A stretch of DNA of 64,000 nt. Source: Candidatus Liptonbacteria bacterium (GTDB lineage Bacteria > Patescibacteriota > Minisyncoccia > UBA6257 > 2-01-FULL-56-20). Shown here piece after piece: positions 5,927-55,319 of this stretch. Numbering within the stretch: the stretch's first letter is position 1; the number at the start of each line of letters is the position of its first letter. A program made the position numbers and the translations under genes. The notes below the pieces were generated by a model. That model ran no database searches. It was not told where the DNA came from and saw only the letters and a list, made by a program, of their open reading frames with translations. The DNA lies in contig JACRFR010000018.1 of NCBI GenBank assembly GCA_016212635.1, forward strand, positions 4,080 through 68,079. The letters are read 5' to 3'.

Positions 5927-5937
5927 ATAAAGCTGGG

Positions 5938-25946: not shown

Positions 25947-25955
25947 GGGTCGCCT

Positions 25956-25973: not shown

Positions 25974-25975
25974 CT

Positions 25976-26737: not shown

Positions 26738-26741
26738 AGCT

Positions 26742-37191: not shown

Positions 37192-38301
37192 TCAGGAAGT
37201 CAGGATGGGGGCGATAATGTAGAAAAAGGAGGGGTCTTTGGGGTTTTTAAGCAGGGCGGGTTTGTCTTCGTTAATTCCCCAAAAAACATCTTCCCCGATT
37301 AAAGACCTAAGTCCATCCAAAAGGTAGCGGGCGTTGAAGGTTACGCGGTTGAACCCATTGGTGAGTTTTACCGGGAGGAGATACTGGTTCTCTCCGGCCA
37401 CCGTGTCGCCGGAAGAAAGTTTTATGCCGTTTAGTGTTTTTTCCGGCTCGACGCGAACTTCGTTGTTGCGCCCGCCCAAAACACTGACTAGCTTCAGGGC
37501 GTCAATCAACTCTTGTTTTTTTAAAGTAACTTCAGCGGTAAAAGCGGAGGGGATAATGGTTTGGTAGTCGGGGAAAACTCCTTCCACAAACCGGGTAATG
37601 CACTCGAAGTTTTTTGTTCGCACTAAAAGTTGGGATTGGTCGGGTAGGAGCTCAACTTCGTCGGTGTCTTTAATGGTTCGTAACAGCTCTTGAATGGTGC
37701 GCAGGGGGATCAGTTTTCGTAGGGGTTGCGGGTAGCCGCCTTGGTATTGTCCGCCGGTGACGGTTTTTTCCGCCAAGCGATAAGTGTCGGTCGCAACCAA
37801 CCGTATATTATCGATGGAATAGTCCCACAGAACAGAGGATAGTTCCGGTCGCAGGTCGGTAATTTGCGCCGCGCCGGCCACCGGACCCAGCGCTCCCCGG
37901 AAAACGCTTCCGGTCATAGAAATTTTTTCGGTTTGGTTGCTTATTTTGGGAATAATTGGAAAGTCCTCCGCGGGCATCCCGTTGATACTGCCTTCGTAAT
38001 TCTCGGTTTTAATCAGTAGGGCTTGTTGTTTCTGTTCGAGATTAATCCGCTCGCTGGTTAGATTGCCGACAATATTAGAAAGTAGTCCCAGTGGTGTCGT
38101 TAGGCTGCCGCCTTCCAGAACTTTGCCCGGAACTGAATATCGGAGGGCGATCTCCAGGTTGGTGGCGGTTAGGGTTATGTCCTCGCCCCTAGCTTCCAGA
38201 AGAACGTTTTTTAGAATCGGCAAACTTGCACCCTCGCCTAGCGCGCGCTCCACCACCACCAACCCTTCTTTAAGATGAGCCCGAAGCACTATAATCTTCA
38301 T
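37192..38301 (-). CDS. dnaN: DNA polymerase III beta sliding clamp.
   Basis: Three-domain beta clamp. N-terminus MKIIVLRAHLKEGLVVVERAL. Confidence 0.9.
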   Translation of the reverse strand: MKIIVLRAHLKEGLVVVERALGEGASLPILKNVLLEARGEDITLTATNLEIALRYSVPGKVLEGGSLTTPLGLLSNIVGNLTSERINLEQKQQALLIKTENYEGSINGMPAEDFPIIPKISNQTEKISMTGSVFRGALGPVAGAAQITDLRPELSSVLWDYSIDNIRLVATDTYRLAEKTVTGGQYQGGYPQPLRKLIPLRTIQELLRTIKDTDEVELLPDQSQLLVRTKNFECITRFVEGVFPDYQTIIPSAFTAEVTLKKQELIDALKLVSVLGGRNNEVRVEPEKTLNGIKLSSGDTVAGENQYLLPVKLTNGFNRVTFNARYLLDGLRSLIGEDVFWGINEDKPALLKNPKDPSFFYIIAPILTS

Positions 38302-40418: not shown

Positions 40419-41162
40419 ATGGCCAATTTATACCACCTCGTCTTATATCAACCCCTACTAAATCTATTAGTGATCCTCTACCAAACTACGGCCGGGGGCG
40501 ATTTGGGGGTGGCCATTATAGAACTTACGGTGCTGATTCAGCTAATCCTTTTCCCCATTGTCCGGCGCAACCTCCGAACCCAAATGGTTATGCAAAAAAT
40601 TCAGCCGGAACTGCGCCGCACCCAAGAACTTTATAAAAAAGATCCGGCCAAACAGTACCAGGCCATGATGGCCACCTACCGCGAACACCACATATCGCCT
40701 TTCGGGGGTTTTGCCCTGACTTTTGTGCAACTGCTCCTGATCATTCCTCTGTACCAAATATTCCTGCACATTTTTGCCGCCGAGACCTTAACCCAACTAT
40801 ACTCCTTCGTGTCCCAGCCCGCCGCCCTAGCCAACATCTCTTTGGGCTTGATAAATCTGCCGCAGCCCAGTATTCTCTTGGTAGTTCTTACCGCTGCCAT
40901 GCAGCTACTTCAAGGCTGGCTAATGTTCCAACCACTGGCGGGATCTGGTCCTGGTCCAGCCTCCTCAAAAATGATGATCTTGATGGGGCCGGTGATCACG
41001 GTGGTAATTTTTTCGCGCTTGCCCGCCGCCGTTGGTCTATATTGGTTAGCCTCCACTATCGCTTCCATTGGTCAAACCGTTATCATTCGCCGGCAGTTAA
41101 CAACCAGCCATGATCAACCTCGAAGCCTTTGTTCAAAAACTGATAGCCCTGATGGGGTTTGA
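40419..41162 (+). CDS. yidC: Membrane protein insertase YidC (short form).
   Basis: Multi-transmembrane protein with YidC/Oxa1 conserved helices. Confidence 0.85.
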   Translation: MANLYHLVLYQPLLNLLVILYQTTAGGDLGVAIIELTVLIQLILFPIVRRNLRTQMVMQKIQPELRRTQELYKKDPAKQYQAMMATYREHHISPFGGFALTFVQLLLIIPLYQIFLHIFAAETLTQLYSFVSQPAALANISLGLINLPQPSILLVVLTAAMQLLQGWLMFQPLAGSGPGPASSKMMILMGPVITVVIFSRLPAAVGLYWLASTIASIGQTVIIRRQLTTSHDQPRSLCSKTDSPDGV

Positions 41163-41583
41163 GGACTGCAAAATAGAAGTCGACGCCGAGCACCGGCACG
41201 GCTCGATCTTTATTTACAGCCACGAGAACCTGATCCAAGAGAACCTGCCCGACTTAGTGGAAAGCATCAACCATTTGGTGCAAATGGCGGCCAAACAACA
41301 AAATGCCGAGACCATCTTCTTCGATCTAAATAATTACCGCCGCGAGCGCGAGCGGCTGATCGCCGAACTGGCTCGAACCGCGGCCCGCAAGGTGCTCGCG
41401 ACCCAACAAGAACTAACCTTGCCCAGCATGAACTCTTACGAGCGGCGGCTGGTCCACGTGGAGCTCGCCACCCATCCGGGAGTAGTTACCGAGAGCAACG
41501 GAGTGGGACGAGAACGCTGCGTGGTGATCAAACCCCTCACGGATGAACCGAAAGGGTCCCTAGTCCAAAGTCAGACCGTATAA
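41155..41583 (+). CDS. jag: Jag/KhpB-like R3H RNA-binding protein.
   Basis: NSYERRLVHVELATHPGVVTESNGVGRERCVVIKP (R3H). Confidence 0.8.
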   Translation, partial: GFEDCKIEVDAEHRHGSIFIYSHENLIQENLPDLVESINHLVQMAAKQQNAETIFFDLNNYRRERERLIAELARTAARKVLATQQELTLPSMNSYERRLVHVELATHPGVVTESNGVGRERCVVIKPLTDEPKGSLVQSQTV

Positions 41584-42786
41584 CCGCCGGTCGTATCGGT
41601 TGATGAAGAACAGCCGGTTTTGGTACACCCGAAGTTCATCTGCGTCCAGGCTCAACCCCTCTAAATTAAGCAAGCTGGACACGTCGCCGGTGGTTAAGTT
41701 GATCGAGAGAAAATCATCCACCGTGTAAAGACGGCGCTTGAAGTAATCATCCGGCAGCTCCGCCGCCGCGAAAGCCCGGGCGTCCCGAGGCACGGCGCAG
41801 ATCAAACCAGCCCCCTCCGTAGAAGTGGCCTGACCCGAGCTCGTCGAATGAGCCTGCCCCAACTCTTCGCTCTTCGCGCTTCGCTCTTCGCTTATCAAGG
41901 TGCATTTATTGGGCAGGGTGAGAAAGTTCAGATCGTGCAGGACGGTGCCGCCTCGCCCCAAAAGGGACAAGGTGCCGCCCCGGCGGTTCTTGTTGGCCGC
42001 AAAAGCGACCCCATAACCCGCCGCCCCGTTCCAATTAATAACTAATCCCACCCGACCCGCCAGGGCGGGCTGGGATGTTTGTTTGGCCAAATCAACCCAC
42101 CACGCCGCCCCTTCGGTTTCCGCAGAACTCCGAGCGACCAAAAGGATCTTCTCCGGACTGGAAGCGATAATATCCACATCGCTAACGTTCACGCCTAAAA
42201 GCGGCCGGGGTGGAGCTTGGGGGCGGGCTGGGTCCAGTTCGGCTAAAACGTTAGTCTTATCACCCCGAGCCAAAAACAAAACAACTCGGCTGTCGGCGGA
42301 CCAAGCGGCGTCGGTTACCGCGACCGGCAGGCCTTGCCAAGTACTGGAGGCGGTCGAAAAAAGAGAAGCGCCCGACTTACCCTCGGCTAGGACGAAACGG
42401 CCATTGGGCGAAAAACGGGCACGGGTGAGGTTGGGCAAGGTGCTGGCGCTGGCCGTGCCGGTGCGCCCTCCCGCCACCCGAACCACTTGCCCGTCGGGAC
42501 GGATCAACCAAACGACACTTTGTTTGTCCACGAAATAATCCAACACCGGATCGGGGGCGACCACGCCGAACTTCTGACTCATTGCAGTGACGCCGGGACT
42601 GGAACTGGTGGCGCCCGGAACAACCACCGTGCCCGGTCGAGAAACTATGCCGGGAGATATGACGCCGCCGACGCCGCTCGGATTGGGGTGGCTGGGGGCT
42701 GGAACGGATCGAAAAACTTGCCACAAACCATAGCCCGCCAGTGCGCCGACAACCAACACTATTAAAACCAGGATCAATTTACGCAT
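41560..42786 (-). CDS. Signal-anchored hypothetical protein (408 aa) carrying an SEER-repeat insertion.
   Basis: N-terminal transmembrane segment, Ser/Gly-rich region, and SEERSAKSEEL encoded by a 14-mer x2 tandem repeat. Confidence 0.5.
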   Translation of the reverse strand: MRKLILVLIVLVVGALAGYGLWQVFRSVPAPSHPNPSGVGGVISPGIVSRPGTVVVPGATSSSPGVTAMSQKFGVVAPDPVLDYFVDKQSVVWLIRPDGQVVRVAGGRTGTASASTLPNLTRARFSPNGRFVLAEGKSGASLFSTASSTWQGLPVAVTDAAWSADSRVVLFLARGDKTNVLAELDPARPQAPPRPLLGVNVSDVDIIASSPEKILLVARSSAETEGAAWWVDLAKQTSQPALAGRVGLVINWNGAAGYGVAFAANKNRRGGTLSLLGRGGTVLHDLNFLTLPNKCTLISEERSAKSEELGQAHSTSSGQATSTEGAGLICAVPRDARAFAAAELPDDYFKRRLYTVDDFLSINLTTGDVSSLLNLEGLSLDADELRVYQNRLFFINRYDRRLYGLTLD

Positions 42787-42788
42787 GC

Positions 42789-43469
42789 TTATTTTTGAAA
42801 AATCAACCGCGCGGCGCTTTGGGCGGATTCGAATAAACCGCGCGGATTTTGCGCGGCGAGGGAAATATCAACCGCGGTTCCGTCGGGAGTGTTGGGATCA
42901 ATTTCCATTCGGAGTGATTCCGGGTGCTCCGCGTTTTGGACCAACTCGCCATTGACCCGCCAAGTCAAACCCAAATCACCCAACCTGGCGATCTTAAAGA
43001 AGAACGGCCGAGCCCACACCTCCGCCGCCGTAGTTCCGAAACGGTTGCTGGGATAAGGAGCGTCGATAACTATGTCCGGGGCGGCTACGGGCAGCCGCAG
43101 GGTTTGGATCGCATCCCCGTTTTTCAACCCCCCCACCCGCGCGCGCAACTTGAGATTACGACTGGCGTCCTCGGGCACCAAGAAAACAATCTTCTGCTTG
43201 CCGTTGCCGCCCTCCAAAAGACGATCGTTTAGGTACCAGTAGATCGGCAGTTTGGATAGATCCACCAGCTGGCCGGTAGTTTCAGTGACAAACACCGTGG
43301 CTTCCATGAACGACCCCGCCACGGGCAACACCTTGCCCGCGTAACCCGACGGCGCATAAGTATCCGCCCGCCAATCCACCCAAATCCAGTAATTTGTTTC
43401 TTGCGCGCCGGCAGTCAGTCCTATAGCTGCCGCGAGGGCCACGCCGAATATCAACAAAACTTTAGGCAT
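42789..43469 (-). CDS. Secreted hypothetical protein (signal peptide).
   Basis: MPKVLLIFGVALAAAIGLTAGAQE. Confidence 0.5.
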   Translation of the reverse strand: MPKVLLIFGVALAAAIGLTAGAQETNYWIWVDWRADTYAPSGYAGKVLPVAGSFMEATVFVTETTGQLVDLSKLPIYWYLNDRLLEGGNGKQKIVFLVPEDASRNLKLRARVGGLKNGDAIQTLRLPVAAPDIVIDAPYPSNRFGTTAAEVWARPFFFKIARLGDLGLTWRVNGELVQNAEHPESLRMEIDPNTPDGTAVDISLAAQNPRGLFESAQSAARLIFQK

Positions 43470-44304
43470 AAGATTCTTGGAATTTCTTGGATCTGCCGGC
43501 TGGCCGTCTCTGATTCCAAGCGCGTTCCGCCCGGAGGCGTTTCGCGGCTGCGGGGTCGCTCAAATCAACCACCGAGCCGTCGATCCGAACCCGACCCCCA
43601 CCCAGAAGTTCCCAACCGACGTCTTCCGGCGCAACCCCCGTCTCCATACTTTCTTTAAGTGTATCAAGTGAGGTTCGAGAAAGGTAGTCGGCGGATAAGA
43701 CACCTCGGTCGCTAATCATCGGCGCCACCCCTAAGCCTTCTGGTCTTTGAGAGGGTAAGTACTGTCCCGCCGCGAGCGCGGGTTGTTCTCCAAAGGCCGT
43801 GGTGGTAGTTGCGCCGGCTGCTTGGCCCGATCTAGCTTCGGCCATCGACTCCTGCACGGTTCCATAGAATTGGCGTCCTTCCCGGCTGACATTCTTGACC
43901 CGTTCCCAAGCAGCCCCATCCTTGCTCCGCGCGGCCGCCCCTAGGCTTCTCGCCGAGGCTTGAACTTTTGGGTCGAACCCAACCTTGAGCGCGGTGGCGG
44001 CCAGAGCGGACTTAGGGTGACGATCCACGTAAATCGTGACCAAGAAGGCAGCTGTTCGAAGCGGCAAGACGTCGCCCACGACCGGGATCAATTCTAAAAG
44101 ATTGCCAATCAGCGCATAATTGCCCTTGACCCCTTTCGTACGCATATAAATTTGTTCCGACGGGAAGGCGATGGCGTCGGTGACGCCCAGGCCCACGCCC
44201 GGGATGTAGTCCAAAATATCCGCCAACAAAATCAAGGCGCCGACAAGCAAGGCCTCGGCGGAAGGTATCTTTGGACCCGAGCTGCTCCTTTGATCATCGC
44301 CCAT
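43462..44304 (-). CDS. Hypothetical membrane-associated protein.
   Basis: Co-directional with its neighbours, with tight spacing. Confidence 0.45.
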   Translation of the reverse strand: MGDDQRSSSGPKIPSAEALLVGALILLADILDYIPGVGLGVTDAIAFPSEQIYMRTKGVKGNYALIGNLLELIPVVGDVLPLRTAAFLVTIYVDRHPKSALAATALKVGFDPKVQASARSLGAAARSKDGAAWERVKNVSREGRQFYGTVQESMAEARSGQAAGATTTTAFGEQPALAAGQYLPSQRPEGLGVAPMISDRGVLSADYLSRTSLDTLKESMETGVAPEDVGWELLGGGRVRIDGSVVDLSDPAAAKRLRAERAWNQRRPAGRSKKFQESYA

Positions 44305-44311
44305 GGTTGTG

Positions 44312-46084
44312 TTACTTGCCCTCCCCGGCCTCTTCTAAGAGTTGTTTGGGGTCAGTGGTAATAATCTTACCTTCAAAGTAGGAAGGAATGATCTGGATTG
44401 CCACATGCCGCTGGCCGGCGATGAACAAACCAGTGCCCACCTCCGCGGTCAACAACAGATCTTTTTCCGCTTGGGTTAGATTAAAGGCCTTACCTACCAC
44501 ATCAATGGTGGCCGGGGCTTGTTTCAGGAGTAATTGAACTGAAGAGTTGGTGATGACCGGCCGGCCATATGGGGAGCGCAGGAAATCCTCCACGTCCTGG
44601 GTGATGGTAGTGGTACCCAAGTAGTACTTGCGGCAGCGTTTGACCAGGCCGAACAAGAAGGCGGCACTGGTTTCATCTTTCATCATCCACCAAGCCTCAT
44701 CCACGATCAAGATCCGCCGCTTAAGATGGGCGCGGATCAGATTCCAAATAAAGTTTAAAATAAGATACATGGCGATCGGGCGCAGTCCGTCTTCCAGGTC
44801 CCGGATCGAAAAGACAATCAATCGATTCTTAAGATCAATGTTGCTGGCTTGATTCAGGAAGCCGGAGAAGCTGCCCTTGGTGAACTTATAAAGCCGCTCG
44901 GCCATGCCCCGGCCGCCCTCTAGGTTGCGCAACACCGTTTCCAGATCCTCCAATAGGGGCGGCTGGGCCTCCGAGAAGTCTTCCCCGATCACGATCTCGC
45001 GCGAGGCGTATGTTTCCGTGATGGCTCGGTCCAGAATGGCATCTTCCTCGGTAGAAACTTCGCCCAAGAGAAGCTTGATCAAACCGGCAATATTTACAAT
45101 ATGCGAACGCAAAACATCCGAGGCAGTCTCTCCGTCGGGGATAATAGGCAGATCGAAAGGGTTAATGTGCTCTTCGGAGGATAGGGAAATGTTGAAGAAG
45201 CTCCCGCCGAACGCCTCGGCTAAGCGTTGGTACTCGTTCTCTGGGTCGATGACAATAACCTCCGTGCCCAACATTAAAGAACGGATAATTTCCAACTTAG
45301 TGGCGTAGGATTTGCCGCTGCCCGCCTTAGCGAAGACCACCTGATTCGCGTTTTCCATGGAGAACCGGTCGAAGATGACCAAACTGTTATTGTGACGATT
45401 GATGCCGTACATCACCCCATCTTCGGAGGTTATATCTTCGGAAACAAAAGGAAAAAAGGACGACACCGGACCCGAATTCATGGGGGTCATGACCAGGAGA
45501 TGATCCTGCCGCAAAGGCAGAACCGACTGATAGCCTTGCAGTTGCTGGAACAGAGCGGGCTTGGCGAAGACCAATTTAGCTTCCAAGATCGAGGTCAGCC
45601 GACTTTCGATCCGAGTCAGTGCGTCCAAGTTATCCGCGTAAATAGTCAGGTACACCGCCACACTAAACAATCTTTCCTGGCCCTGCATCAGCCCGTCGCG
45701 CAGATTCTCAATGTCTTGCATCGCGGTCTCCAGCATGGGATCGCGGACCAACCCTTTTTCTTCCCGATCCGCGATTTGGGACTGTACTTGGGTGACTTTC
45801 TTGCGCAAATTTTTCAAGGCGTTACCGGTGTCCAAGGGCTCGGTGTAGATCGCGATATCCATCAATTCCGGCAGGTTGATAATCGGCTCGAACCAACCCG
45901 TGGACAGGAAGCGCGGGTAGGAAAAGAAGAAGAAGGACTTGGCGAGCTTATCCCCGATCTTGAGGTAGTTAGATTGCACCTCCAGGCCCGGTGGAGCGAT
46001 AACCTTTTTAACTTGTTGGAAATTGTCGGGCATGTTAGGAGTGTGAGACGCGGCGCCGTCTAAGCTAGAATTCGATGGTGCCAT
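44312..46084 (-). CDS. VirB4/TrbE/TraC-family type IV secretion ATPase (C-terminal AAA_10-like domain).
   Basis: VFAKAGSGKSY Walker A and ILIVDEAWWMMKD (the DEAW Walker B diagnostic of VirB4), then the conserved RK...TQ...D region. Confidence 0.8.
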   Translation of the reverse strand: MAPSNSSLDGAASHTPNMPDNFQQVKKVIAPPGLEVQSNYLKIGDKLAKSFFFFSYPRFLSTGWFEPIINLPELMDIAIYTEPLDTGNALKNLRKKVTQVQSQIADREEKGLVRDPMLETAMQDIENLRDGLMQGQERLFSVAVYLTIYADNLDALTRIESRLTSILEAKLVFAKPALFQQLQGYQSVLPLRQDHLLVMTPMNSGPVSSFFPFVSEDITSEDGVMYGINRHNNSLVIFDRFSMENANQVVFAKAGSGKSYATKLEIIRSLMLGTEVIVIDPENEYQRLAEAFGGSFFNISLSSEEHINPFDLPIIPDGETASDVLRSHIVNIAGLIKLLLGEVSTEEDAILDRAITETYASREIVIGEDFSEAQPPLLEDLETVLRNLEGGRGMAERLYKFTKGSFSGFLNQASNIDLKNRLIVFSIRDLEDGLRPIAMYLILNFIWNLIRAHLKRRILIVDEAWWMMKDETSAAFLFGLVKRCRKYYLGTTTITQDVEDFLRSPYGRPVITNSSVQLLLKQAPATIDVVGKAFNLTQAEKDLLLTAEVGTGLFIAGQRHVAIQIIPSYFEGKIITTDPKQLLEEAGEGK

Positions 46085-46087
46085 GGC

Positions 46088-46118
46088 GAGTTATTAATCA
46101 TTGATTATTAATCATTGA
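46088..46118. promoter_or_regulatory. Second copy of the TGATTA-N-TAATCA tandem palindrome, in the 34-nt gap directly upstream of the VirB4-like start.
   Basis: TTATTAATCATTGATTATTAATCATTGAT shares the 20-nt core with 9181-9212. Confidence 0.45.
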
Positions 46119-46802
46119 TCATTTCTGACCGGCCGCCTCCAAAGTTTCCACGCCCGGAACTCGTACCCCTTCCTTCTCGATAGTTTCGGGGTTATAGAAG
46201 TTATAAAACAATTCCACCAATTGTTCGTTGCCTAGCAGTTTAACTTCCAGCCCGACCGCCCGCAGGCCTTCCATTACTTGTTCTACTCGCTGTCCCAGCT
46301 GGGTCAGGTTTTTTTGGAACTCGGCTTCGTCCGCCGCGCTAGTTTGGGCCGCGGCCGCGCTCGTATCTTTGGACTTGAGAAAAGGTAAAAATTTACCCGC
46401 ACTCTCGCGGCTGGGCAGGGTTACGGTGTCGTAGGGAACAACCACCAAAAAAAGCTTCCGCATAATCGGGTTGTCGTGGACAAAACCCCGGATGAACGAC
46501 TGGTACTCCAGCATTTGGTTCTGCAGTAAACTGGATGGCTCGTCCACCCGGCGCTTCTCTAGTTTGGTCAGATACTTCTCGATATTGATCTTGCGCGAAT
46601 GGATCACGGTTTGAACGGTAAAATCCAATCCATTTAGAAATTCCTGGTAGCTCTGGGTAATTACGTTCTGTTCCACCTCGGATTTCAGGGCGAAATTCAT
46701 TCCCCCCACCAGCAAAATTTGCCGCAGGCCGCCGGACAAGATAATGGTGTTATCCCGGATCTCCTCGATCATTACTAGGTTTTGAGTGTTGGCTTCGGCC
46801 AT
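46119..46802 (-). CDS. Hypothetical protein (227 aa), possibly the detached N-terminal domain of the VirB4-like ATPase.
   Basis: It sits immediately upstream of, and co-directional with, the 590-aa VirB4-like gene. The combined length is about 817 aa, close to a full-length VirB4. Confidence 0.4.
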   Translation of the reverse strand: MAEANTQNLVMIEEIRDNTIILSGGLRQILLVGGMNFALKSEVEQNVITQSYQEFLNGLDFTVQTVIHSRKINIEKYLTKLEKRRVDEPSSLLQNQMLEYQSFIRGFVHDNPIMRKLFLVVVPYDTVTLPSRESAGKFLPFLKSKDTSAAAAQTSAADEAEFQKNLTQLGQRVEQVMEGLRAVGLEVKLLGNEQLVELFYNFYNPETIEKEGVRVPGVETLEAAGQK

Positions 46803-46867
46803 TGTTTTAAGTATACCTTGAATTACGAAATTCTGTACTTACACCCTTTGGGTTATTCACGTCCCCA

Positions 46868-46946
46868 TCTGTCATTCCCGCGCAGGCGGGAATCCAGGCC
46901 CCAGGGCAAGTTGCATACTGGATCCCCGCATTCGCGAGGATGACAG
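46868..46946. repeat. Imperfect 29-bp-arm inverted repeat related to the MITE interior (CTGTCATTCCCGCGCAGGCGGGAATCCAG ... CTGGATCCCCGCATTCGCGAGGATGACAG).
   Basis: It shares the GTCATTCC-G/CGC-GGGAATCCAGG core with the 19.8-kb and 60.6-kb elements but lacks their terminal inverted repeats. Confidence 0.5.
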
Positions 46947-46994
46947 AAAGAAGGCGAATATGTAAGTCCTAAACATAAACAAAATAAAATAAGG

Positions 46995-47516
46995 CTAGCG
47001 ATAATCGATTCGCCGGGCGGCGCGATGTTCCCCAGTGGGACGCTTAATGATCTGGAAACGCTCCCGAACCTCGGGGGTAGTATCGGTGGGGGTTTGGGGT
47101 GACTCCGGGGGCGCGCTGGGCCGGCCGGTTTGGACCTCCTGCCATATGGTCTTGAGCGCCAAACCAGCCAAGACTCGCTCCAAATCAAATCCCGGCGTCA
47201 CCGGCTTGGGCGGTTGCGAACCCTGGGGGAGCGCCTTTTCGGTGGATTGCCAGATATATCTTTGCGGCTCCCAAAAAAAACTGAAGGCCGCGGCGATGAT
47301 CTTGGGCAACGACTGGCCGTTGATGGTGATAAAACCCAAGCCCAAGCTTATTCCCACCACAGCTATCGAGCACAGCGCCCAGAGCCAAGTTTGAACCGTA
47401 AAGTAAAAAACAAAACTAACTACGCCGCTCCCGGCCAGGTATAAAAATTGGCGGATGGTGAAGGGTCCCGCTATCTTATCCTCAACCTCGATGAATTGGG
47501 GAACTTGGTATTGCAT
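46995..47516 (-). CDS. Small membrane protein (two transmembrane helices), possibly a VirB3/PrgI-like component.
   Basis: FIEVEDKIAGPFTIRQFLYLAGSGVVSFVFYF. The call is from position and topology only. Confidence 0.35.
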   Translation of the reverse strand: MQYQVPQFIEVEDKIAGPFTIRQFLYLAGSGVVSFVFYFTVQTWLWALCSIAVVGISLGLGFITINGQSLPKIIAAAFSFFWEPQRYIWQSTEKALPQGSQPPKPVTPGFDLERVLAGLALKTIWQEVQTGRPSAPPESPQTPTDTTPEVRERFQIIKRPTGEHRAARRIDYR

Positions 47517-47602
47517 AAAAACCTATATGTCCTATCTGACCTATCGGGCCCGTGAGTCTTGTATCGGTTCCAATTAACGTACACCCGGAAGAGTTGCATC
47601 CG

Positions 47603-47637
47603 AGGTCGGGCCTTAGGGAGCCCCAAGGCCCGACCTC
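47603..47637. repeat. Family-1 palindromic repeat.
   Basis: GAGGTCGGGCCTTAGGGAGCCCCAAGGCCCGACCTC with the conserved upstream CCCGGAAGAGTTGCATCC. Confidence 0.7.
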
Positions 47638-47757
47638 AATGAATCCGCCAAGTCATCCGACCTGGCGTCCGGTCGAATAACCGGACGGGGCGTACCCTAT
47701 TCGCATCGATTCGCGAGTGGTGATTAATTGGAGACAGTACAACATAACCCGCGCGAC

Positions 47758-49137
47758 CTAAACCTTCGGCGCGGGCGGCTCTTCGGAATAATTAACAACC
47801 TTGGGCGGGGGCGCGAGTTTCTTTTCTAAAGACGAGGGGGTCGGGGCAGGCTTTGACAACTTCTGCCACCAGCCGGACTTGTCGGGCGCCGCGGGAATAG
47901 TGGAAGGCAAGATGGAGCCGAACTTAACCGTCGGCTGGGACAGGTCTATGGTGGCCGGGGTAGGGGCGGACACAAACTCCTCTTTCTTGAAAGGCGCAGT
48001 GGCGGGCGTTGGCGCCGGAACCGAGGCGGCAGGCCTCTCCAGAGAACTCGCCGGGGGCGTTAAGCCCCGTGTTCGCATAGGGGTATTCTCTAACGGGGTA
48101 AATAACTCGCCCTTGTCTTTGCCGAGCGGTGGTAGGGGCGGCACTGGCGGCGCCCCGGGCTTCGTGGGCGCGGGCACACCGATCTCGATACGAGCAGTGG
48201 AGGGCGGCGCCTTAGGTGTGCTAGCGGGGCCTCGAAGCAGGTCGGTTTCACCAGAAGGAGAAAGGCCGGGGGTAGTAGTGCTCGAGGTTTGCTTCGGCAT
48301 CTGGACGGGGCGCATCTTTTCCTCCTGCCGGAGTACGATTGGTTGAGGTGTGATGGTTTCTGGTTTTTTTGGTTCGACTCGGCTTCCGCCGGAGGCGCCT
48401 GCCCGCCCGAAGCCGGGTGCAGGCGGGGATCCTCCTTCGGAGGACACCACGGGCGGTTTGATCGGATCCATCATGGGCGGTGCCGATATTGGTTGTTTGG
48501 GAACTATCGGGGTGGGAACGGCGGGGGGCAAGACTGCGCCTCGAGTAATATCAGGTCGTATCGGCGGGGGTAGAGGCGCGGGCACTCCGGGGAATTTCCC
48601 AGCCTGCAGATTTACGGCTGGTAAATCCCCCGGACTTCCCGATGTTTCCGGGCGATGCCGAGTCGTACCCATGGGCGTAACCGGCGGCAGAGCCGCCGGC
48701 GCGGGTCGGGTTATTTCCTCAATCCGAGCGAGCGGGGTGGTGGCGGGAGCGGACAGGGTTACCACTGGCTGGGCGGGGGCTGTAGCGGGTGTTTCTACCG
48801 ACGGGAGCTGGTATATTTTTTCCAGATCCGCCCGGTACTTGGAAAAAATCTCCCGGTCCAAATCGGTCGCCATCTTTGCCACTTCTAGAGATCCCAGGGT
48901 TAATAAAACATCCAGCTGTTCGCTCAACTCGGCCGGCTTAAGGAATCCCAGCAAAACCAAACCGGACAACTGCTGAACCAGTAGTACGTCATTGCCGTCG
49001 GCCAAGCCCTGCCGCAAGCAAATTTGGGCAACAGCTTGCAAAAGTTCTGTCGAACTGGCGGCATCCTGGATCGATTTCGGCAGGGAGTCGAACCGTTCCG
49101 CAACTTGTTGAGGAGTAATTTGATCAATATCAGTCAT
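47758..49137 (-). CDS. Proline-rich hypothetical protein.
   Basis: 459 aa with long low-complexity Pro/Ala/Thr tracts. Confidence 0.45.
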   Translation of the reverse strand: MTDIDQITPQQVAERFDSLPKSIQDAASSTELLQAVAQICLRQGLADGNDVLLVQQLSGLVLLGFLKPAELSEQLDVLLTLGSLEVAKMATDLDREIFSKYRADLEKIYQLPSVETPATAPAQPVVTLSAPATTPLARIEEITRPAPAALPPVTPMGTTRHRPETSGSPGDLPAVNLQAGKFPGVPAPLPPPIRPDITRGAVLPPAVPTPIVPKQPISAPPMMDPIKPPVVSSEGGSPPAPGFGRAGASGGSRVEPKKPETITPQPIVLRQEEKMRPVQMPKQTSSTTTPGLSPSGETDLLRGPASTPKAPPSTARIEIGVPAPTKPGAPPVPPLPPLGKDKGELFTPLENTPMRTRGLTPPASSLERPAASVPAPTPATAPFKKEEFVSAPTPATIDLSQPTVKFGSILPSTIPAAPDKSGWWQKLSKPAPTPSSLEKKLAPPPKVVNYSEEPPAPKV

Positions 49138-49148
49138 AGTGGTTTATT

Positions 49149-51815
49149 TTATGCGGTTGCGGCTAGCTCCTGTGGGCTTAGCGTGCCAGTAGTATAGAAG
49201 TTATCCTTCCGGCGCTCTTTCCACGCCGCGAACTCCGCCTGGTTTGGTCTAGGCGCCCGAGCCCGACCAAATTCACAGCTCCGGTTGGCACAGTAGACGG
49301 GTCGCTTGGGGCTGTAGGTTTCTTGGGGGCATTTCTGACAGCGCCAGATCTTCGGGGTGGTGGAATACTGTTGGTAACTTAACGCTCCCGTGACCGCCGC
49401 CCCCACAATGCCCTTGGTCAAGCCCCAGGCGGTTCTGGCCGCGCCCTTGGCTAGAACACCGCCGGCCGCCGCCGCACCGGCAGCCACTCCCGCTACGCCG
49501 GCAGTCAAACGAGCGGCTCTTTGCTTGGATTTACTCTCACTATTGTACCATCCCTCTGTCCAGCCAGCTACCCGATCGCGGGCCGCCCGATGGGCTTCCA
49601 CCGGATGAGAGCCAAGGTAGGCCACTCGACCGAGACCACTCCCGACCGCGACTGCTCGACCGCGACCACTTACCGCCGCCAGTTCTTCTCTGGTTTTGGC
49701 CAAACGAGCGGCCGCCAGCGCGTCCGCCGCGCGTTGCTCCTGGCGTTGTTTCACTTCCGCCTTTTCGCGAAGCAGCCGCGCTTCGGCCGCGGCGAGTGTC
49801 GCTTGGACACGCGCCACCTCTGCCTCGGCTCTCTGTAGGCGCCCCGCTTTCTGTTCCGCGCCGCCGAATCCAATACTCTTCTCTCCTCTTATCCGATCAC
49901 GCTTCGCGGCCGCCGCCTCCAGAGCGCTTTTCGCCGCACGCGCGCCCTTCATGGCTTCTTGGATCTCGGGGCTAATTGCCGCTTCTTCGGGTTCGGCAAC
50001 TGCCGGCGGTGTCCCGGCCGGAACCCCTTCCGCAAATCCGCGCTGGAATGGAGACGCTGATGTCTCCCCTCCCAGTCCCACCGGGGCCGTGCCCATTACC
50101 TGGGGCTGGCTGGCGGGGGCGTGTGCGGCTGGCTGTAGCTGCGGCAGGGATTCGGCGGCGATCCGAACGGGCTGGGCCGGGGCAATGGGAATCACTTTGG
50201 GTCGGGCGGCCGCTCCCGCCGGAGAAGCAGAAGGCGGCGGTGGGGAAGATGGTTGGGCGGCGGCCGCGGCGGGAGGCGGTTGGTCCTCTGGTTTTGGTCC
50301 GGCGGCAGGCACGGCTTCCACCCGGGCCTTTTGAGCCGCCATCGCCGCCTCGGTTTTGGTCCCGCCGCGAGCAGCAGTTTGAACTGCGGTGACTGCGGGC
50401 AAAGTAGTTAACCGTTGTTTAACTCTGGCGGCTTGAGCCGTGGCCTTGCCCCAATACTCCTTACCCTTGTCCGCCACTCCTTTTTTGGCCCAACTCTGCA
50501 CTCCGCGCCGCGCTCCTTGCACTGCCGCCACTGCACCCTGGGAGCCGTAAACACCCACTTTTTGGGCCGCGAATATCCCGGCGGCTATGATTGCCAGCGA
50601 AACTATCATTTGGAGGAAAAAGGAAGCGGTTGTAGCCAGCGCGCCCAGTGCTCCGGCCAACCCCGCCGCCGCCCCGGCCGGAGCCCAAATATTAGTGGTC
50701 GCGAGAGCCTCGATGACCTTAATGCCGAGCCAAAGGAAGAAGACGCACAGCGGCGCGAAGAAAGAGTACTTTAAGAACTTACTCCACCACTCCCCCCACT
50801 GGCTCCGGAACATGGGCAAAATGAAGCCGATCATGGCCAGCGGGAACAAGACCAGCAAGATGCCCAGGGCAACGTAACGGATTAAGAACAAGCAGTTGAT
50901 CGTGGCCAAAATGACGATAATAAGCAGGGAGCCAAGTATCGAGAAAACCAGCGATCCGGTGGATTGCAAGAGGCCAGCCACGGCGGATCCCCCTCCAGAA
51001 TCGTTTAACTCTGCGCCAACTGCGGTCGCGTTAGTAGTTCCCATCTGCTCGTCCGACAGGCTGGTAAGGTTCGCTTTCTGCGGCTGGAAAGATCCCGAGA
51101 GAGCCATCGCGAAGTTGTGAAAACTATTGCCCCCGGCCGGACTGATCTGATTTATAAAGTAAGACGCCAGAGTATCGTTGAACTTGATGATCTGTCCGGT
51201 CAAGGGCAGGCCGAAATTAACCAAGAGTATCGCCGCGAGAAACTTGGGCAGGAGCGCCTTGGCGCCATAGGGCGTGTACCGGACAATGGTCGCGATCGCG
51301 ATCATCACTAAAGCGATCAAAGAGAAGACATTGAACAGGGCGGAGGACATCTTGTAACCAAGCTGGACCACTGGTCCGTTAACTATGTCCGTGTTAAGTT
51401 CCAGAACAATGCCCAAAAGCCACGCCTGGAGGGAGACGATTATCCCGGCAATGAAACTAATGAAGTAGGCGGCCAAAAAGAAGATCTTGCCGATCACCCC
51501 GAAGGCCAGGTTGAACATATTGCCGAAAGTTTTATCCCAAGCCCAAGAAAAAATATTATTGGCAGTTTTGGCATTCTTTTCCACAATTGCTTTTTCGCAG
51601 TTTGCCCGCTGTTCCGGCGTGGTGGTGGCGCCCTGCGCCGGTATGCAACGTAAACTGGCGAAGGTCTCTACGCTCCCGTAGGCCAGGGCGATATTACCGC
51701 CGAAGTTCTTTTGCGCCGCCCCGAAAGGAACGGGCGACAAAACCACCCACAGCCCTACGGTTGTCGCGACAGCTATCAAAACTGATCGGGGAATATCTAA
51801 TCGCTTCATATTCAT
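49149..51815 (-). CDS. Polytopic membrane protein, VirB6/TrbL-like, with a long Ala/Pro-rich coiled-coil C-terminal extension.
   Basis: At least 8 hydrophobic helices in the first ~450 aa, then QPPPAAAAAQPSSPPPP and a charged coiled coil. It lies next to the VirB4-like gene. Confidence 0.5.
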   Translation of the reverse strand: MNMKRLDIPRSVLIAVATTVGLWVVLSPVPFGAAQKNFGGNIALAYGSVETFASLRCIPAQGATTTPEQRANCEKAIVEKNAKTANNIFSWAWDKTFGNMFNLAFGVIGKIFFLAAYFISFIAGIIVSLQAWLLGIVLELNTDIVNGPVVQLGYKMSSALFNVFSLIALVMIAIATIVRYTPYGAKALLPKFLAAILLVNFGLPLTGQIIKFNDTLASYFINQISPAGGNSFHNFAMALSGSFQPQKANLTSLSDEQMGTTNATAVGAELNDSGGGSAVAGLLQSTGSLVFSILGSLLIIVILATINCLFLIRYVALGILLVLFPLAMIGFILPMFRSQWGEWWSKFLKYSFFAPLCVFFLWLGIKVIEALATTNIWAPAGAAAGLAGALGALATTASFFLQMIVSLAIIAAGIFAAQKVGVYGSQGAVAAVQGARRGVQSWAKKGVADKGKEYWGKATAQAARVKQRLTTLPAVTAVQTAARGGTKTEAAMAAQKARVEAVPAAGPKPEDQPPPAAAAAQPSSPPPPSASPAGAAARPKVIPIAPAQPVRIAAESLPQLQPAAHAPASQPQVMGTAPVGLGGETSASPFQRGFAEGVPAGTPPAVAEPEEAAISPEIQEAMKGARAAKSALEAAAAKRDRIRGEKSIGFGGAEQKAGRLQRAEAEVARVQATLAAAEARLLREKAEVKQRQEQRAADALAAARLAKTREELAAVSGRGRAVAVGSGLGRVAYLGSHPVEAHRAARDRVAGWTEGWYNSESKSKQRAARLTAGVAGVAAGAAAAGGVLAKGAARTAWGLTKGIVGAAVTGALSYQQYSTTPKIWRCQKCPQETYSPKRPVYCANRSCEFGRARAPRPNQAEFAAWKERRKDNFYTTGTLSPQELAATA

Positions 51816-54355
51816 TACGGCGCGGGCAGGGTTTGGTTGCAGCTCGGCGGGCCGCTGGTGACAATAGGCGCTCCGGTCAAAGGATCGGTCTGGGTGATCG
51901 GGGCGGGCGCTAGGTTGGCGGCGATGGCCGCGTTCAGGTTTCGGAGGCGCTCCAAGCGGTTTTTGGATTCTGTCTCCAGGCCGGCGATGTACTCCGCGCT
52001 CCGTTCGCGGGCGGCGTTCATCCAGTCCACTACTGCCTGGATCTGGGTTGTGCTGGCGGCTTGATTCAACTCGTCGCGCTTGGCGCTGAACTCGGTGGAG
52101 TTGCGCAAGACGTTATCCAGCTCCACCTGCACGTTCCCGCCCAAACTTTGCAGCATCTGGATCTTGCCCTCACTGCCGGTGATCGCGCCGTTCGCGTCTT
52201 GGTTGGGGCACTTGTTCTTAAGATCGTTCAAGGCGGCCACCGCGGAGCTCGCGGAATCCAGCCAGTCATTATCGTTTCTGGCGGTGTCGGATAGTTTAGT
52301 GAGCAACTCGTTCATACTCTGCACTATTGCTTCCTTACCGCTGGGAATGGGGGGCGGATTGCTGGCGCGATCCACATTACTGTTCATCTGGCGGCAATCC
52401 TCTAACTCTTGGGGATCGACGATGCCGTCGCACGCATTAGGTGTCGGCCCGCCACCCCCAGGAGAAGCGCCCACCCGGTCCGCCGCGGTCGCGCCCTGGA
52501 ACATTCCGCGCATACCCTTGACGCCTGCCGCCATGAGCTTATTTAATCCCGAGTTGACCAAGGCGGAAACGAGCGCGGTAAAATCTTCCGCGTTCACGAT
52601 GCGGTGCACGGGCGAGCCGATGGCGCTATCCATCGCTCCGGCGATGGTTTTGCCCGGAGTGGTGGCTTCGTAACCATTCGGGTCGCAGTAGGTGAACCAG
52701 CACTGGTAATCTTCTTCTCCGGGCGTTCCTTCGCACTTATCCATTCGGACAAACCCCTCCTTTTGCTTGTTCGCATTGACTAGAATCTGGGCCCGGGCAG
52801 GGGTAGTGCCGCCGGCTTCGTAGATATTTACCGGCTCGGTAGTTGAGTCCACACACTCCTTGGTCGACAAGAATCCTTGGCCGGCGCTCGCATCCTTGGA
52901 AGCCGAGTCTTTACCTTGATCCACTTGAGCCTGAACCCGGTCGCTGACCTCGATCATCGCTCCGAAGATATTATTGGACGGCTTCAGGGATTCCCCGTAA
53001 GCGACAAAACCGCCGCTCTCGAAGCTGTCATAAAATTGGTCTACGTTCTGAACGACTCGGTCCAGGGTGCAACCGGGCGGGGTATCGTAAGCGGCTTGCT
53101 GTTCGATTTTGGCGATCTGCAGCAGGGGCACCAAGCCGGTACAAAAATTAGGCATGATCTCTTCGATCGCTTGGCCCACCTGGCGGTTCGCCTCGTCTTT
53201 CAAAAAGCCGGTGAAGTTGGTGACAAACTTAGGCTTGCCTTCCCCTTGGACCCACTTGATGGTTTGCATGACTAAGCGGTGAACCAGCTGGTCTTTGAGC
53301 GTCTCGGTGGCCAAGGTCTTGATGTAAGTCTTGATGTCTTTGAGCAAGTCGTGGATAAATTTTTTGATGTCCGTCACGATCCACTGCGCGTGTGCGGTCG
53401 GCAGGCCGAAGAGCCGCGCGGACATCGTGCGGAGGGTCGAGTGGTCGGAGCGCGACGCGGCGCGTTCAATCGCGGCCGCCCGGTCCAACTCGCGGCGGTA
53501 CTCTTCCAGGGCCAGCGTAACGGTCGGGTCGTTGGCTTGCATCACCAAGTTCATCCGCAAAGGGTCGTTCACCTCATCGGTCAAAGCAACCATGTCGCGC
53601 GCGTAGACCAGGAGCGCGATCAAGCTCCGGTGATAGTTCGCGAGCGGCTCCGGCACCTCCGATCGAAGGGTTTGCTGGAGAGCCCGGTCTAAATAGGGCG
53701 CCGCAAAACCGATCGGTTGCTTGGCTTGGGTTAGGCTCGCCAGCTCATTCAAATTGGTTTGGACGAGGTTTTTGTCCAAAATTCGCTCGATGGCAGCGGA
53801 GTAGATGCGGACATCCCCCGGGCCGTATGTTTTTTTTGTTTTAATTTGGGCGACCAAAGTTTTGGCTTCGACCGACCAGTCGGGCAGAGTGATATTTTGG
53901 CTTAGGGCGCGAGCCGCCACCCCAGTAGCCGCGTTATCGAAATCCGGAGGCACCAGGCCCACTTGGCCATCCGGCTGGGTAACCAGTCCACCGGGGTTGG
54001 CCACCGCTATTTCCTGAACCAGATTTGCGGCGAGCGCGTCGGTTAAGTTAGTAGAGGTGGCCGGGAGAAGGGAGTCCGCGATGGAAGCGGCGGTAGAAGT
54101 GGCAGGCAAGGAGAAAAGCAGCGGGTCCGGGATCGGCTCCACGAACGCATTCCGGGGCGTGTCAGTTGGAACCGAAGACGCGGGCAGGACGGCCGCGGGT
54201 TTAGCGGGCGCGGGGCGCTGGTAGATGGCGGCCATAAGGTAAGTGGACCCTCCCACCAGCGTGGCGAGCACCAAAAACCCGACGACCAGAGTTTTGAAAT
54301 CGCGGGGAGCCATTTGCTCCTTTATTATAGAGAATACTTGCGGCCAAAGGAACAA
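51815..54355 (-). CDS. Large secreted/signal-anchored hypothetical protein (846 aa).
   Basis: N-terminal transmembrane/signal segment. It is the first gene of the co-directional cluster. Confidence 0.5.
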   Translation of the reverse strand: MFLWPQVFSIIKEQMAPRDFKTLVVGFLVLATLVGGSTYLMAAIYQRPAPAKPAAVLPASSVPTDTPRNAFVEPIPDPLLFSLPATSTAASIADSLLPATSTNLTDALAANLVQEIAVANPGGLVTQPDGQVGLVPPDFDNAATGVAARALSQNITLPDWSVEAKTLVAQIKTKKTYGPGDVRIYSAAIERILDKNLVQTNLNELASLTQAKQPIGFAAPYLDRALQQTLRSEVPEPLANYHRSLIALLVYARDMVALTDEVNDPLRMNLVMQANDPTVTLALEEYRRELDRAAAIERAASRSDHSTLRTMSARLFGLPTAHAQWIVTDIKKFIHDLLKDIKTYIKTLATETLKDQLVHRLVMQTIKWVQGEGKPKFVTNFTGFLKDEANRQVGQAIEEIMPNFCTGLVPLLQIAKIEQQAAYDTPPGCTLDRVVQNVDQFYDSFESGGFVAYGESLKPSNNIFGAMIEVSDRVQAQVDQGKDSASKDASAGQGFLSTKECVDSTTEPVNIYEAGGTTPARAQILVNANKQKEGFVRMDKCEGTPGEEDYQCWFTYCDPNGYEATTPGKTIAGAMDSAIGSPVHRIVNAEDFTALVSALVNSGLNKLMAAGVKGMRGMFQGATAADRVGASPGGGGPTPNACDGIVDPQELEDCRQMNSNVDRASNPPPIPSGKEAIVQSMNELLTKLSDTARNDNDWLDSASSAVAALNDLKNKCPNQDANGAITGSEGKIQMLQSLGGNVQVELDNVLRNSTEFSAKRDELNQAASTTQIQAVVDWMNAARERSAEYIAGLETESKNRLERLRNLNAAIAANLAPAPITQTDPLTGAPIVTSGPPSCNQTLPAP

Positions 54356-54518: not shown

Positions 54519-55319
54519 TTACTCAACCTCCTCAAGCACATGCGTCAATCGCTCCAAGTCATCAAGAGACAAGTTGCCCGGCCGAACTTGAGGGTCGAAA
54601 CCCAACTCTTGGAGCCAGAGCTTTGGTTCCAAGCGCCCCCCCGCTAATCCCGCAGCGGTTAGGTTATTAAGTAAGGTTTTACGCGGCTGTCGAAACAACA
54701 AGTTCACCAATTGAAAATACTGATCCCGGCGAGTAACACTAGGTGGTTGCCGGCGGCGCAGGACTACCAACACACCGTCCACCTGGGGCGGCGGCGAGAA
54801 TTCTTGGCGGGGTATCTTTAAAACCAGTTCCGGTTCCCAGTCCAGCTGGACGCTGGCCGAGAGTTTGTTCATGCCGGGCGGCTTGGCCGCGAGGCGTTCG
54901 CCCACCTCCTGCTGCATCAAAAAAACACAAGCATCCGGGAGGCGGGGTAAGTTGCTGATCAAGCGCAAGAGATAACCGGTCAGGTAGTAGGGCAGGTTGC
55001 CGACCAGGAGATAAGAACGGAGAGGGAGTAGGGGGTAGGGAGTAGAGAGTAGAGTACGGATGTCGCCGGGAATGATTTCCACCCGCGGATCGTTCTTGTA
55101 CTTCTCTTGAAGCGCCTCGGCCAGTGCCGCATCCTTCTCGACCGCAATTATTCTCCTCGCTCCTCGCTCCTCGCTCCTCGCGAGTATCCCAGTCAACTCT
55201 CCATGCCCGGGGCCGATCTCTACGATCGCTTCTCCGGGCAGGGATGTGATCACTTCGGCGATGCGTTCCAGGATCGCCGAGTTCTTTAGAAAATGTTGGC
55301 CTAATTTTTGCCGCGGCAT
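54519..55319 (-). CDS. rsmA: 16S rRNA dimethyladenosine transferase RsmA/KsgA, with an SEER-repeat insertion.
   Basis: MPRQKLGQHFLKNSAILERI...VEIGPGHGELT. CTCCTCG x4 (55149-55176) encodes ARSEERGARR. Confidence 0.9.
   Translation of the reverse strand: MPRQKLGQHFLKNSAILERIAEVITSLPGEAIVEIGPGHGELTGILARSEERGARRIIAVEKDAALAEALQEKYKNDPRVEIIPGDIRTLLSTPYPLLPLRSYLLVGNLPYYLTGYLLRLISNLPRLPDACVFLMQQEVGERLAAKPPGMNKLSASVQLDWEPELVLKIPRQEFSPPPQVDGVLVVLRRRQPPSVTRRDQYFQLVNLLFRQPRKTLLNNLTAAGLAGGRLEPKLWLQELGFDPQVRPGNLSLDDLERLTHVLEEVE

Follow-up and report, generated by a model that had tools for sequence, protein, structure and literature searches.

A probable Patescibacteria-type type IV secretion locus beside dnaA and dnaN in a Liptonbacteria genome

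Nine genes on one strand

The Patescibacteria, or candidate phyla radiation (CPR), account for much of bacterial diversity, and their way of life is to attach to other cells. Our subject is a locus in a 64-kb stretch of DNA (the window, from here on) from the genome of a Candidatus Liptonbacteria bacterium, class Paceibacteria. Within it, nine genes run together on the minus strand at 41560-54355, and we regard them as very probably a type IV secretion system (T4SS) locus of the Patescibacteria/CPR type. The cluster is chromosomal, and its neighbours are the dnaA-dnaN and rnpA-yidC-jag genes. An earlier reading, made from the sequence alone, had proposed a T4SS-like cluster of nine co-directional, tightly spaced open reading frames (ORFs) at this place. 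All nine are there, at the coordinates it gave, although the lineage it had in mind, Saccharibacteria, was off by a class. The genes are as follows, with lengths in amino acids (aa):

41560-42786, minus: predicted TolB-like beta-propeller, 408 aa (family profile; PD40 in orthologues)
42789-43469, minus: predicted tandem Ig-like secreted protein, 226 aa (family profile)
43462-44304, minus: small polytopic membrane protein, 280 aa (hydropathy; no known family)
44312-46084, minus: VirB4-family ATPase, 590 aa (NF045971, PF19044, PF12846)
46119-46802, minus: TrsD-like VirB4 N-domain, 227 aa (NF045975, NF041427)
46995-47516, minus: PrgI/VirB3-like protein, 173 aa (PF12666)
47758-49137, minus: Pro-rich protein, 459 aa (no known family)
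49149-51815, minus: putative VirB6/TrbL-like polytopic protein, 888 aa (orthologues, hhalign, hydropathy)
51815-54355, minus: 846-aa ORF, two genes (parts A and B) in most relatives
51815-53440, minus: part B of the 846-aa ORF, residues 306-846; candidate VirB5/TraI(DUF4141)-like protein
53441-54355, minus: part A of the 846-aa ORF, residues 1-305; membrane anchor and all-alpha bundle

Six of the junctions are as tight as the sequence-only reading had them, from an 8-nucleotide (nt) overlap to a 34-nt gap. The 846- and 888-aa ORFs overlap by 1 nt and the 280- and 226-aa ORFs by 8 nt; the gaps are 11 nt (888/459), 34 nt (TrsD/VirB4), 7 nt (VirB4/280) and 2 nt (226/408). The description fails at two places, with 241 nt between the 459-aa gene and prgI and 192 nt between prgI and trsD. 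NCBI annotation starts two of the proteins later, the ATPase at M18 (leaving 573 aa) and the 846-aa ORF at M15 (leaving 832 aa).

The motor and its PrgI-like partner

The most secure identification in the cluster is the ATPase. It scores 365.8 bits against NF045971 (VirB4-like conjugal transfer ATPase, CD1110 family), where the cut-off is 325, and 90.6 against PF19044 (cut-off 25.8); PF12846 is matched as well. The two motifs on which the protein had been called a VirB4 are where they were said to be, the Walker A GSGKS at aa 255-259 (45308-45322) and the DEAW at aa 462-465 (44690-44701). Models of the HerA/DUF87 and FtsK-like families, to which the ATPase might have belonged instead, score far lower. 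Aligned with residues 225-772 of PrgJ from pCF10, it is 25% identical (E 2e-38). Homologues number at least 8000 at E <= 1e-20, and among the best 120 matches one, annotated from a Candidatus Liptonbacteria metagenome-assembled genome, is 100% identical and the other 119 are 72-79% identical, the named sources being Parcubacteria, Liptonbacteria, Paceibacterota and Patescibacteria.

The NF045971 match spans profile positions 184-734 of 752. Since it begins only at position 184, the ATPase is without the N-terminal part of the family. That part lies just upstream as a gene of its own. The 227-aa protein, suspected at the outset to be a detached VirB4 N-domain, matches NF045975 VirB4_plasma at positions 101-191 (E 3.8e-10) and NF041427 TrsD (E 7.9e-5), and it shares 61% identity with residues 6-217 of P0028, a 793-aa VirB4 of the fused kind, the remainder of which is 75% identical to the window ATPase. 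Across related loci, TrsD and VirB4 are separate genes in 73 of 78 and fused (768-790 aa) in five, which include L009, L011, L020, L021 and L024 and fall in one lineage. The split VirB4/TrsD is the normal state in Paceibacteria.

The 173-aa protein, two genes upstream of VirB4, had been put forward as a two-helix VirB3/PrgI-like protein, and it is one: residues 9-87 match PF12666 PrgI at 40.3 bits (cut-off 27). A hydropathy scan places its transmembrane-like segments within residues 36-65, and orthologues are present in 73 loci.

The 888-aa and 459-aa proteins

Hydropathy and composition bear out the description of the 888-aa protein as a membrane protein with an Ala/Pro-rich tail. It has an N-terminal signal or anchor, about six transmembrane segments within residues 111-417 and a further one at 770-788; the tail, from residue 440, is rich in Ala and Pro (24% Ala and 15% Pro at 440-620), then in Ala, Arg and Glu, and is helical. 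The proposal that the protein is VirB6/TrbL-like gains support from its relatives. Among 46 syntenic orthologues, five match PF04610 TrbL/VirB6 (best E 2.1e-7) and one matches TrbL_4. In hhalign comparisons, the family reaches a probability of 40% (E 3e-4) with R388 TrwI and 23.7% with pCF10 PrgH. When seven family profiles (eight alignments) from the cluster were set against pCF10 PrgC-PcfB and against VirB2, 3, 5, 6 and 8 of R388, the 888-aa family was the sole one to exceed 3%. The hhalign likeness is weak, and the support falls short of a curated threshold.

The C-terminal 120 or so residues of this protein (49149-49500) hold a hydrophobic segment followed by CQKC..(12)..CANRSC, which resembles a Zn ribbon. 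We considered this tail as a feature of the family and rejected it, since it occurs in one of the 46 orthologues, that of this genome only.

In the neighbouring 459-aa protein, a conserved helical N-domain (about 100 aa) is followed by a variable Pro-rich tail (18% Pro). The protein has neither a transmembrane segment nor a signal peptide and is cytoplasmic. Its gene is always kept alongside those of the motor, PrgI and the 888-aa protein. Its family has no relative in Pfam or the PDB. Orthologues are found in 55 loci, including two (L020 and L021) that lack the accessory genes discussed below.

One ORF that is usually two genes

The sequence-only reading treated the 846-aa ORF as a single large protein. 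The ORF is real; as a single gene it is a peculiarity, for in most relatives it is two adjacent genes, part A of 250-330 aa and part B of 430-600 aa, fused in the window and its nearer relatives.

Part A consists of an N-terminal membrane anchor and an extracellular all-alpha helical bundle (AlphaFold2 pLDDT 78.7), and the model has no specific structural relative. A weak TraH match had raised the possibility that part A is VirB8-like, which we rejected for that lack of a specific structural relative. Most part A orthologues carry TSP3 calcium-binding repeats; the window copy is without them.

Part B begins with a signal-peptide-like sequence, LFGLPTAHAQ followed by WIVTD, and continues into a conserved extracellular domain (residues 335-615 or so) and a helical tail. 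Its family comprises 2883 representative clusters. An alignment of 71 sequences shows P70, C100, C124, N132, G143, C196 and C252 to be invariant, four of them cysteines, and some orthologues carry additional domains of the kind found in surface proteins (PKD, fn3 or F5/8 type C, also called discoidin). What part B might be is hinted at by its relatives. Three of the 71 members match Pfam DUF4141 (best E 2e-5), and over its first 31 mature residues the family member P0250 shares 48% identity with Parabacteroides TraI (pairwise E 2e-6). The mature N-termini resemble one another: AQ-W-I-V-T-D in part B, AQFVVHDP in TraI and AQGIPVFD in R388 TrwJ. DUF4141 is TraI, which is encoded beside the VirB6-like TraJ in Bacteroidetes conjugative transposons. 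In elements of the CTnDOT type and in R388 (where a small eex lipoprotein gene lies between), the VirB5/TraI gene stands just upstream of the VirB6 gene; part B stands directly upstream of the 888-aa gene.

The likeness is limited to about 30 residues, and the hhalign probability is 6%. Part B itself matches nothing in the PDB or Pfam, the TraC and TrwJ structures included, and the 160-aa p5482 'TraI' shows no similarity to it. The AlphaFold2 model, built with two homologues supplied, has a pLDDT of 41, too low to be of use. Part B is also unlike VirB5/TrbJ and Bacteroidetes TraI in being a much larger, Cys-containing domain that is often fused to a membrane-anchored helical protein, while resembling them in being secreted and encoded directly upstream of a VirB6-like gene. 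We put the chances that part B is a VirB5/TraI(DUF4141)-like secreted component at about even.

The three genes downstream of VirB4

The 280-aa protein has a conserved core of about 110 aa with three to four hydrophobic helices and a variable C-terminal tail. Orthologues occur in 50 loci, and the family has no Pfam or PDB relative. The 226-aa protein starts with the signal peptide MPKVLLIFGVALAAAIGLTAGA, followed by QE. Its family profile finds the Ig-like domains of T4 Hoc (3shs, E 1.3e-6) and a protein of the cell surface (7biz, 2.9e-4); BiPBP_C is matched weakly, and orthologues come in two-domain (about 230 aa) and three-domain (about 330 aa) forms. It is thus a predicted secreted protein of tandem Ig-like domains. 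The 408-aa protein has an N-terminal transmembrane segment at residues 4-22 and nearly invariant K294, C295 and C330. Its family profile matched 12 TolB chains, with E values from 2e-11 (4r40) to 5e-8, and four orthologues have PD40 repeats. By its profile, this is a membrane-anchored TolB-like beta-propeller, in fold only; no Tol-Pal function is implied. The proteins around the core had been set aside as unannotatable and lineage-specific. They are conserved throughout the class, and three now have a fold or a lead.

Many related loci (L001, L007, L040 and others) have space for an extra gene, 750-1070 nt, between the 226- and 408-aa orthologues, and L001 and L040 have some 1350-1460 nt between KsgA and the 846-aa orthologue. 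The window has neither.

Conservation across Paceibacteria

Each window protein was used as a jackhmmer seed against six-frame ORFs of 80 related loci from Paceibacteria genomes. For every one of the nine, syntenic orthologues turned up in 46-80 of the 80 loci, many of the misses being due to short contigs, so the nine ORFs are genuine genes and not chance frames. The order UvrD-KsgA-(846, often two genes-888-459-PrgI-TrsD-VirB4-280-226-408)-Jag/YidC-DnaA-DnaN is kept in nearly every locus that is long enough, among them those of Harrison-, Jorgensen-, Taylor-, Nomura-, Kaiser-, Adler- and Zambryskibacteria and others. The flanking genes in the window are these:

37192-38301: DnaN
38413-39783: DnaA
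40419-41162: YidC
41110-41583: Jag/R3H
54519-55319: KsgA, on the other side of the cluster
55439-58366, minus: UvrD with intein, beyond KsgA

Of 15 locus proteins that were compared, VirB4 shows the highest conservation, above DnaA, DnaN, YidC and KsgA. Measured against orthologues in six reference loci, its identity is 59-75%, while DnaA has 46-69%, DnaN 29-46% and the extracellular proteins of the cluster 22-36%. The cytoplasmic motor is under very strong constraint. A conserved motor with diverging outer parts is what one would expect if an important machine turned its outside to a changing partner, and the figures are consistent with a role in Paceibacteria as important as that in Saccharibacteria.

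Some loci are stripped down. In L011, L020 and L021, all with a fused VirB4, Jag comes directly after VirB4. In L020 and L021, the two of the three that reach far enough upstream, KsgA abuts the 888-aa gene, so that the order reads KsgA-888-459-PrgI-VirB4-Jag: there is no space for the 846-, 280-, 226- and 408-aa genes, and the 459-aa gene is kept. These three loci lead us to a two-layer view of the system. They suggest a minimal core of VirB6-like protein, 459-aa protein, PrgI and VirB4, together with an accessory extracellular module whose genes are gained or lost together.

We call the locus origin-proximal on the strength of its gene content and not of GC skew. The skew passes from positive (28-38 kb) to negative (38-44 kb), turning near dnaN/dnaA, and the turn is a cumulative maximum; origins are usually expected at a minimum. 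As for the UvrD gene, its product is a UvrD/PcrA-type helicase of 975 aa split by an intein (Intein_splicing and Hint, around residues 255-620), and an ORF of comparable length is found in one of 32 related loci.

Relatives of the system

Clusters of this kind in the CPR, mentioned in the sequence-only reading, are indeed documented. Quinonero-Coronel et al. (2025) described VirB4, TrsD, VirB3 and VirB6 near dnaA/dnaN/ksgA in Paceibacteria, without a relaxase, in a Patescibacteria dataset that included Liptonbacteria genomes (PMC12102498). The window shares with that system a separate TrsD, PrgI/VirB3, a probable VirB6 close to virB4 and the dnaA/dnaN/ksgA/rnpA/rpmH neighbourhood; like it, the window shows no relaxase, and its VirB4 is closest to Patescibacteria VirB4s (by identity among the matches listed, not by a tree). 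The two do not differ in any essential; the survey has a VirB2-like gene near virB4 in many assemblies, and none was found in the window. The survey leaves neighbours without profile matches unannotated, and here three of these gain a fold and one a lead. Given this feature-by-feature match, the system is already known, having been described between 2023 and 2025. The new points are incremental: the folds of two accessory proteins, the A/B fusion, a part that may be VirB5/TraI-like, the minimal form of four genes and the ranking by conservation.

The Saccharibacteria provide the functional precedent. Wang et al. (2023) found the T4SS of Southlakia epibionticum ML1 essential by transposon sequencing (Tn-seq), needed as it is for growth as an epibiont, the first T4SS shown to be essential for its owner's growth, and no coupling or relaxase protein was recognised in SEML1_0006-0019 (PMC10633639). 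That locus (SEML1_0004-0019) is like ours in being origin-proximal and on the minus strand, and in running from a VirB6-like protein through PrgI, a TrsD-like protein and a split VirB4 to an exported Ig/PEGA protein. In the Southlakia locus there are also a row of six VirB2-like pilins, a second large protein of the VirB6 kind, a lysozyme-like VirB1 and an NTF2-like protein that resembles VirB8, none of which the window has within its cluster; the window cluster alone has the TolB-like propeller, the small polytopic protein and the A/B fusion.

Further afield, the Prg/Pcf system of pCF10 (MPF_FATA) offers the same PrgI and, with the 888-aa protein read as VirB6-like, the same VirB6-VirB3-VirB4 order, and NF045971 is the name that the Prokaryotic Genome Annotation Pipeline (PGAP) gives to PrgJ. 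The separate TrsD, a VirB4 N-domain homologue, has its counterpart in the Trs system of pGO1. Compared with pCF10, the window lacks PcfC/VirD4, a relaxase, a PrgK-type hydrolase, PrgL/VirB8 and LPXTG adhesins; its cluster is chromosomal and vertically inherited, and the accessory proteins have no detectable similarity to PrgC-PcfB. The comparison of gene orders called for by the sequence-only reading also came out in favour of a T4SS, with (VirB5-like)-VirB6-x-VirB3-VirB4 paralleling prgH-prgI-prgJ of pCF10, trwJ-trwI of R388 and traI-traJ of Bacteroides.

What the machine might do, and what else it could be

By analogy with characterized systems, VirB4 with its separate TrsD N-domain would be the ATPase, its hexamers docking on VirB3 and VirB6 at the cytoplasmic membrane. 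It would power the assembly of a channel or stalk and transport through it, and the extracellular and anchored proteins would take that channel through the wall as far as the host cell's surface. The machine most likely does not conjugate DNA, as judged from the want of a relaxase or coupling protein and from the fixed, core-genome position of the locus. It probably serves epibiotic life by moving proteins or other macromolecules between epibiont and host, and it may build a pilus-like tube, as judged from published work (PMC12102498, PMC10633639, the FEMS review PMC12857230 and a 2026 preprint showing tubular structures where a host is contacted).

Several points weigh against so confident a picture. 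The window's own 888-aa protein matches nothing in Pfam or NCBIfam and falls below every VirB6/TrbL threshold; that it is VirB6 is likely, the assignment resting on its orthologues and on hhalign probabilities of 24-40%. No VirB2-like pilin was found, with neither PF04956 nor PF18895 matched in the cluster proteins or in 46 orthologues of the 280-aa protein, and the unannotated parts of the window hold no small ORF with two transmembrane segments. No VirB8-like (NTF2-fold) gene was found, and 41560-54355 contains no VirB1-like peptidoglycan hydrolase. The earlier suggestion to look for a relaxase or VirD4 elsewhere yielded none within the window, in which no relaxase or coupling protein (VirD4/T4CP/TcpA) was detected among ORFs of at least 150 aa. 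These searches covered 64 kb, and a type IV coupling protein (T4CP), pilins or a relaxase could lie elsewhere in the genome. Synteny, for its part, spans housekeeping genes too and does not prove the membership of the 846-, 280-, 226- and 408-aa genes, all four of which some lineages lack. Finally, the direction of transport in Paceibacteria and the substrate are things we infer by analogy.

A possible stand-in for VirB1 lies close by. A LysM and Peptidase_M23 hydrolase is encoded at 58482-59477 on the plus strand (PF01551, 1.4e-26; PF01476), about 4 kb upstream of the cluster and divergent from UvrD. In several related loci an M23 gene is the neighbour of UvrD, and in L024 one comes straight after VirB4/280; VirB1-like matches with M23/LysM domains are reported in the Patescibacteria T4SS survey (PMC12102498). 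Its membership of the cluster is uncertain.

The doubt about synteny has a sharper form, in which only the 888-aa protein, the 459-aa protein, PrgI, TrsD and VirB4 are the secretion machine and the 846-, 280-, 226- and 408-aa proteins are envelope genes caught in a frozen gene order. KsgA, UvrD, YidC, DnaA and DnaN are held in that same order and are unrelated to secretion, TolB-like propellers and Ig domains are common envelope parts, and none of the four accessory proteins matches a pCF10 or R388 T4SS component by hhalign. The stripped-down loci, where the fused VirB4 is followed by Jag (L011, L020 and L021) and KsgA by the 888-aa gene (L020 and L021), have no room for the accessory genes. 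Yet those same loci cut the other way: all four genes are missing together from L020 and L021, and the three downstream of VirB4 from L011 as well, as expected of one module. The accessory genes are, moreover, on the same strand as the core and translationally coupled to it (the 1-nt and 8-nt overlaps and the 7-nt and 2-nt gaps given above), part B has a DUF4141/TraI-like N-terminus and sits directly upstream of VirB6 as virB5, trwJ and traI do, and an exported Ig/PEGA protein is likewise encoded after VirB4 in the Saccharibacteria locus that proved essential. Given the coupled translation, the loss of the genes together and the lead from TraI, we think frozen envelope genes rather unlikely. 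That the cluster is instead part or remnant of an integrated conjugative element we consider very unlikely, in view of its class-wide fixed position and the lack of mobility genes nearby. Its VirB4 does belong to a conjugal, CD1110/MPF_FATA-like family, and the window has a serine recombinase (4715-5926) and low-GC islands. The recombinase, however, is some 36 kb away, the GC content of the cluster (0.53-0.62) is not below that of its surroundings, and no relaxase, T4CP or integrase is adjacent. Almost all of the loci from the 80 genomes that are long enough have the cluster at this one site, with ksgA on one side and yidC/dnaA on the other. The VirB4 of the cluster is more conserved than DnaA, and tblastn with the part B core and the transmembrane region of the 888-aa protein found no match among 72,556 plasmids.

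A T4SS could also work inwards, taking up host DNA, RNA or nucleotides in the manner of the Ced system of archaea or of ComB in Helicobacter. CPR bacteria do not make their own nucleotides, the window has no relaxase or T4CP, and a 2026 preprint reports that RNA is acquired from the host, that tubular structures, perhaps T4SS pili, are seen at the interface, and that the phylum has a monophyletic VirB4 clade. The window VirB4 even gives a weak, partial match to CedB (NF041017, E 1.6e-8), although this covers 71 residues of the P-loop region and scores 33.6 bits against a cut-off of 700. No uptake-specific component was identified in the window. We also count against uptake the Saccharibacteria, in which the T4SS is essential and ComEC-dependent DNA uptake is not (PMC12857230, a FEMS review), though that contrast is silent on direction. 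On balance, an uptake machine strikes us as improbable.

Returning to a secretion system that exports or exchanges macromolecules, we can offer a more specific and more tentative idea about its outer parts. The 846-aa A and B parts and the 280-, 226- and 408-aa proteins might form an extracellular T4SS module specific to Paceibacteria, in which an anchored VirB5/TraI-like tip or stalk, the tandem-Ig protein and the propeller carry the channel through the wall to the host; the 459-aa protein might replace the coupling protein. This is possible, though we would not lean on it. To our knowledge, such an architecture of tethered VirB5, Ig domains and propeller is undescribed for any monoderm T4SS, and the module would be of moderate interest if true. 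The window as a whole is a clean and complete example of a Paceibacteria T4SS and not a new kind of system. Its value lies in a better parts list (the TolB-like propeller, the tandem-Ig protein, the A/B fusion, the possible VirB5/TraI-like part and the minimal four-gene form) to guide structural and genetic work.

Intergenic elements and other features of the window

The two wide gaps in the cluster each contain an element:

47602-47637, minus: near-perfect 17-bp hairpin, 94% complementary, with a 2-nt loop, in the 241 nt that separate prgI from the 459-aa gene
46868-46947, no strand assigned: two inverted copies of a dispersed palindromic repeat, filling most of the PrgI-TrsD gap

The hairpin may be a transcript end or a processing site. 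No T-run follows it, and a promoter and terminator scan of the cluster gave counts equal to those of shuffled sequence. The repeat, TCATTCCCGCG-NRN-GCGGGAATC, has four copies in the window (19792-19814, 46872-46894, 46921-46943 and 60613-60635) where 0.01 would be expected, and looks like a repetitive extragenic palindromic (REP) element or a miniature inverted-repeat transposable element (MITE). The 34-nt spacer between TrsD and VirB4 (46085-46118) holds a tandem duplication, two copies of TCAATGATTAATAA.

Some 10 kb from the T4SS, a PilB/GspE-type ATPase with an MshEN domain is encoded at 29877-31559 on the minus strand (T2SSE, E 4e-114). Its presence means that type IV pilus machinery is encoded; no pilin genes were seen in its vicinity. 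A low-GC block (0.40-0.47) at 23433-28439, also on the minus strand, carries a ResIII-type helicase/restriction subunit, an NYN-domain protein and an N6/N4 DNA methylase, and is probably a type III-like restriction-modification island. The serine recombinase, on the plus strand, lies beside a DUF4411 and M78/IrrE-like pair at 5938-7675 on the minus strand. The GC content there is 0.42, and 4715-7675 is possibly a small island of the mobile or toxin-antitoxin type. A tRNA-Arg at 9101-9175 is the sole Rfam match in the window.

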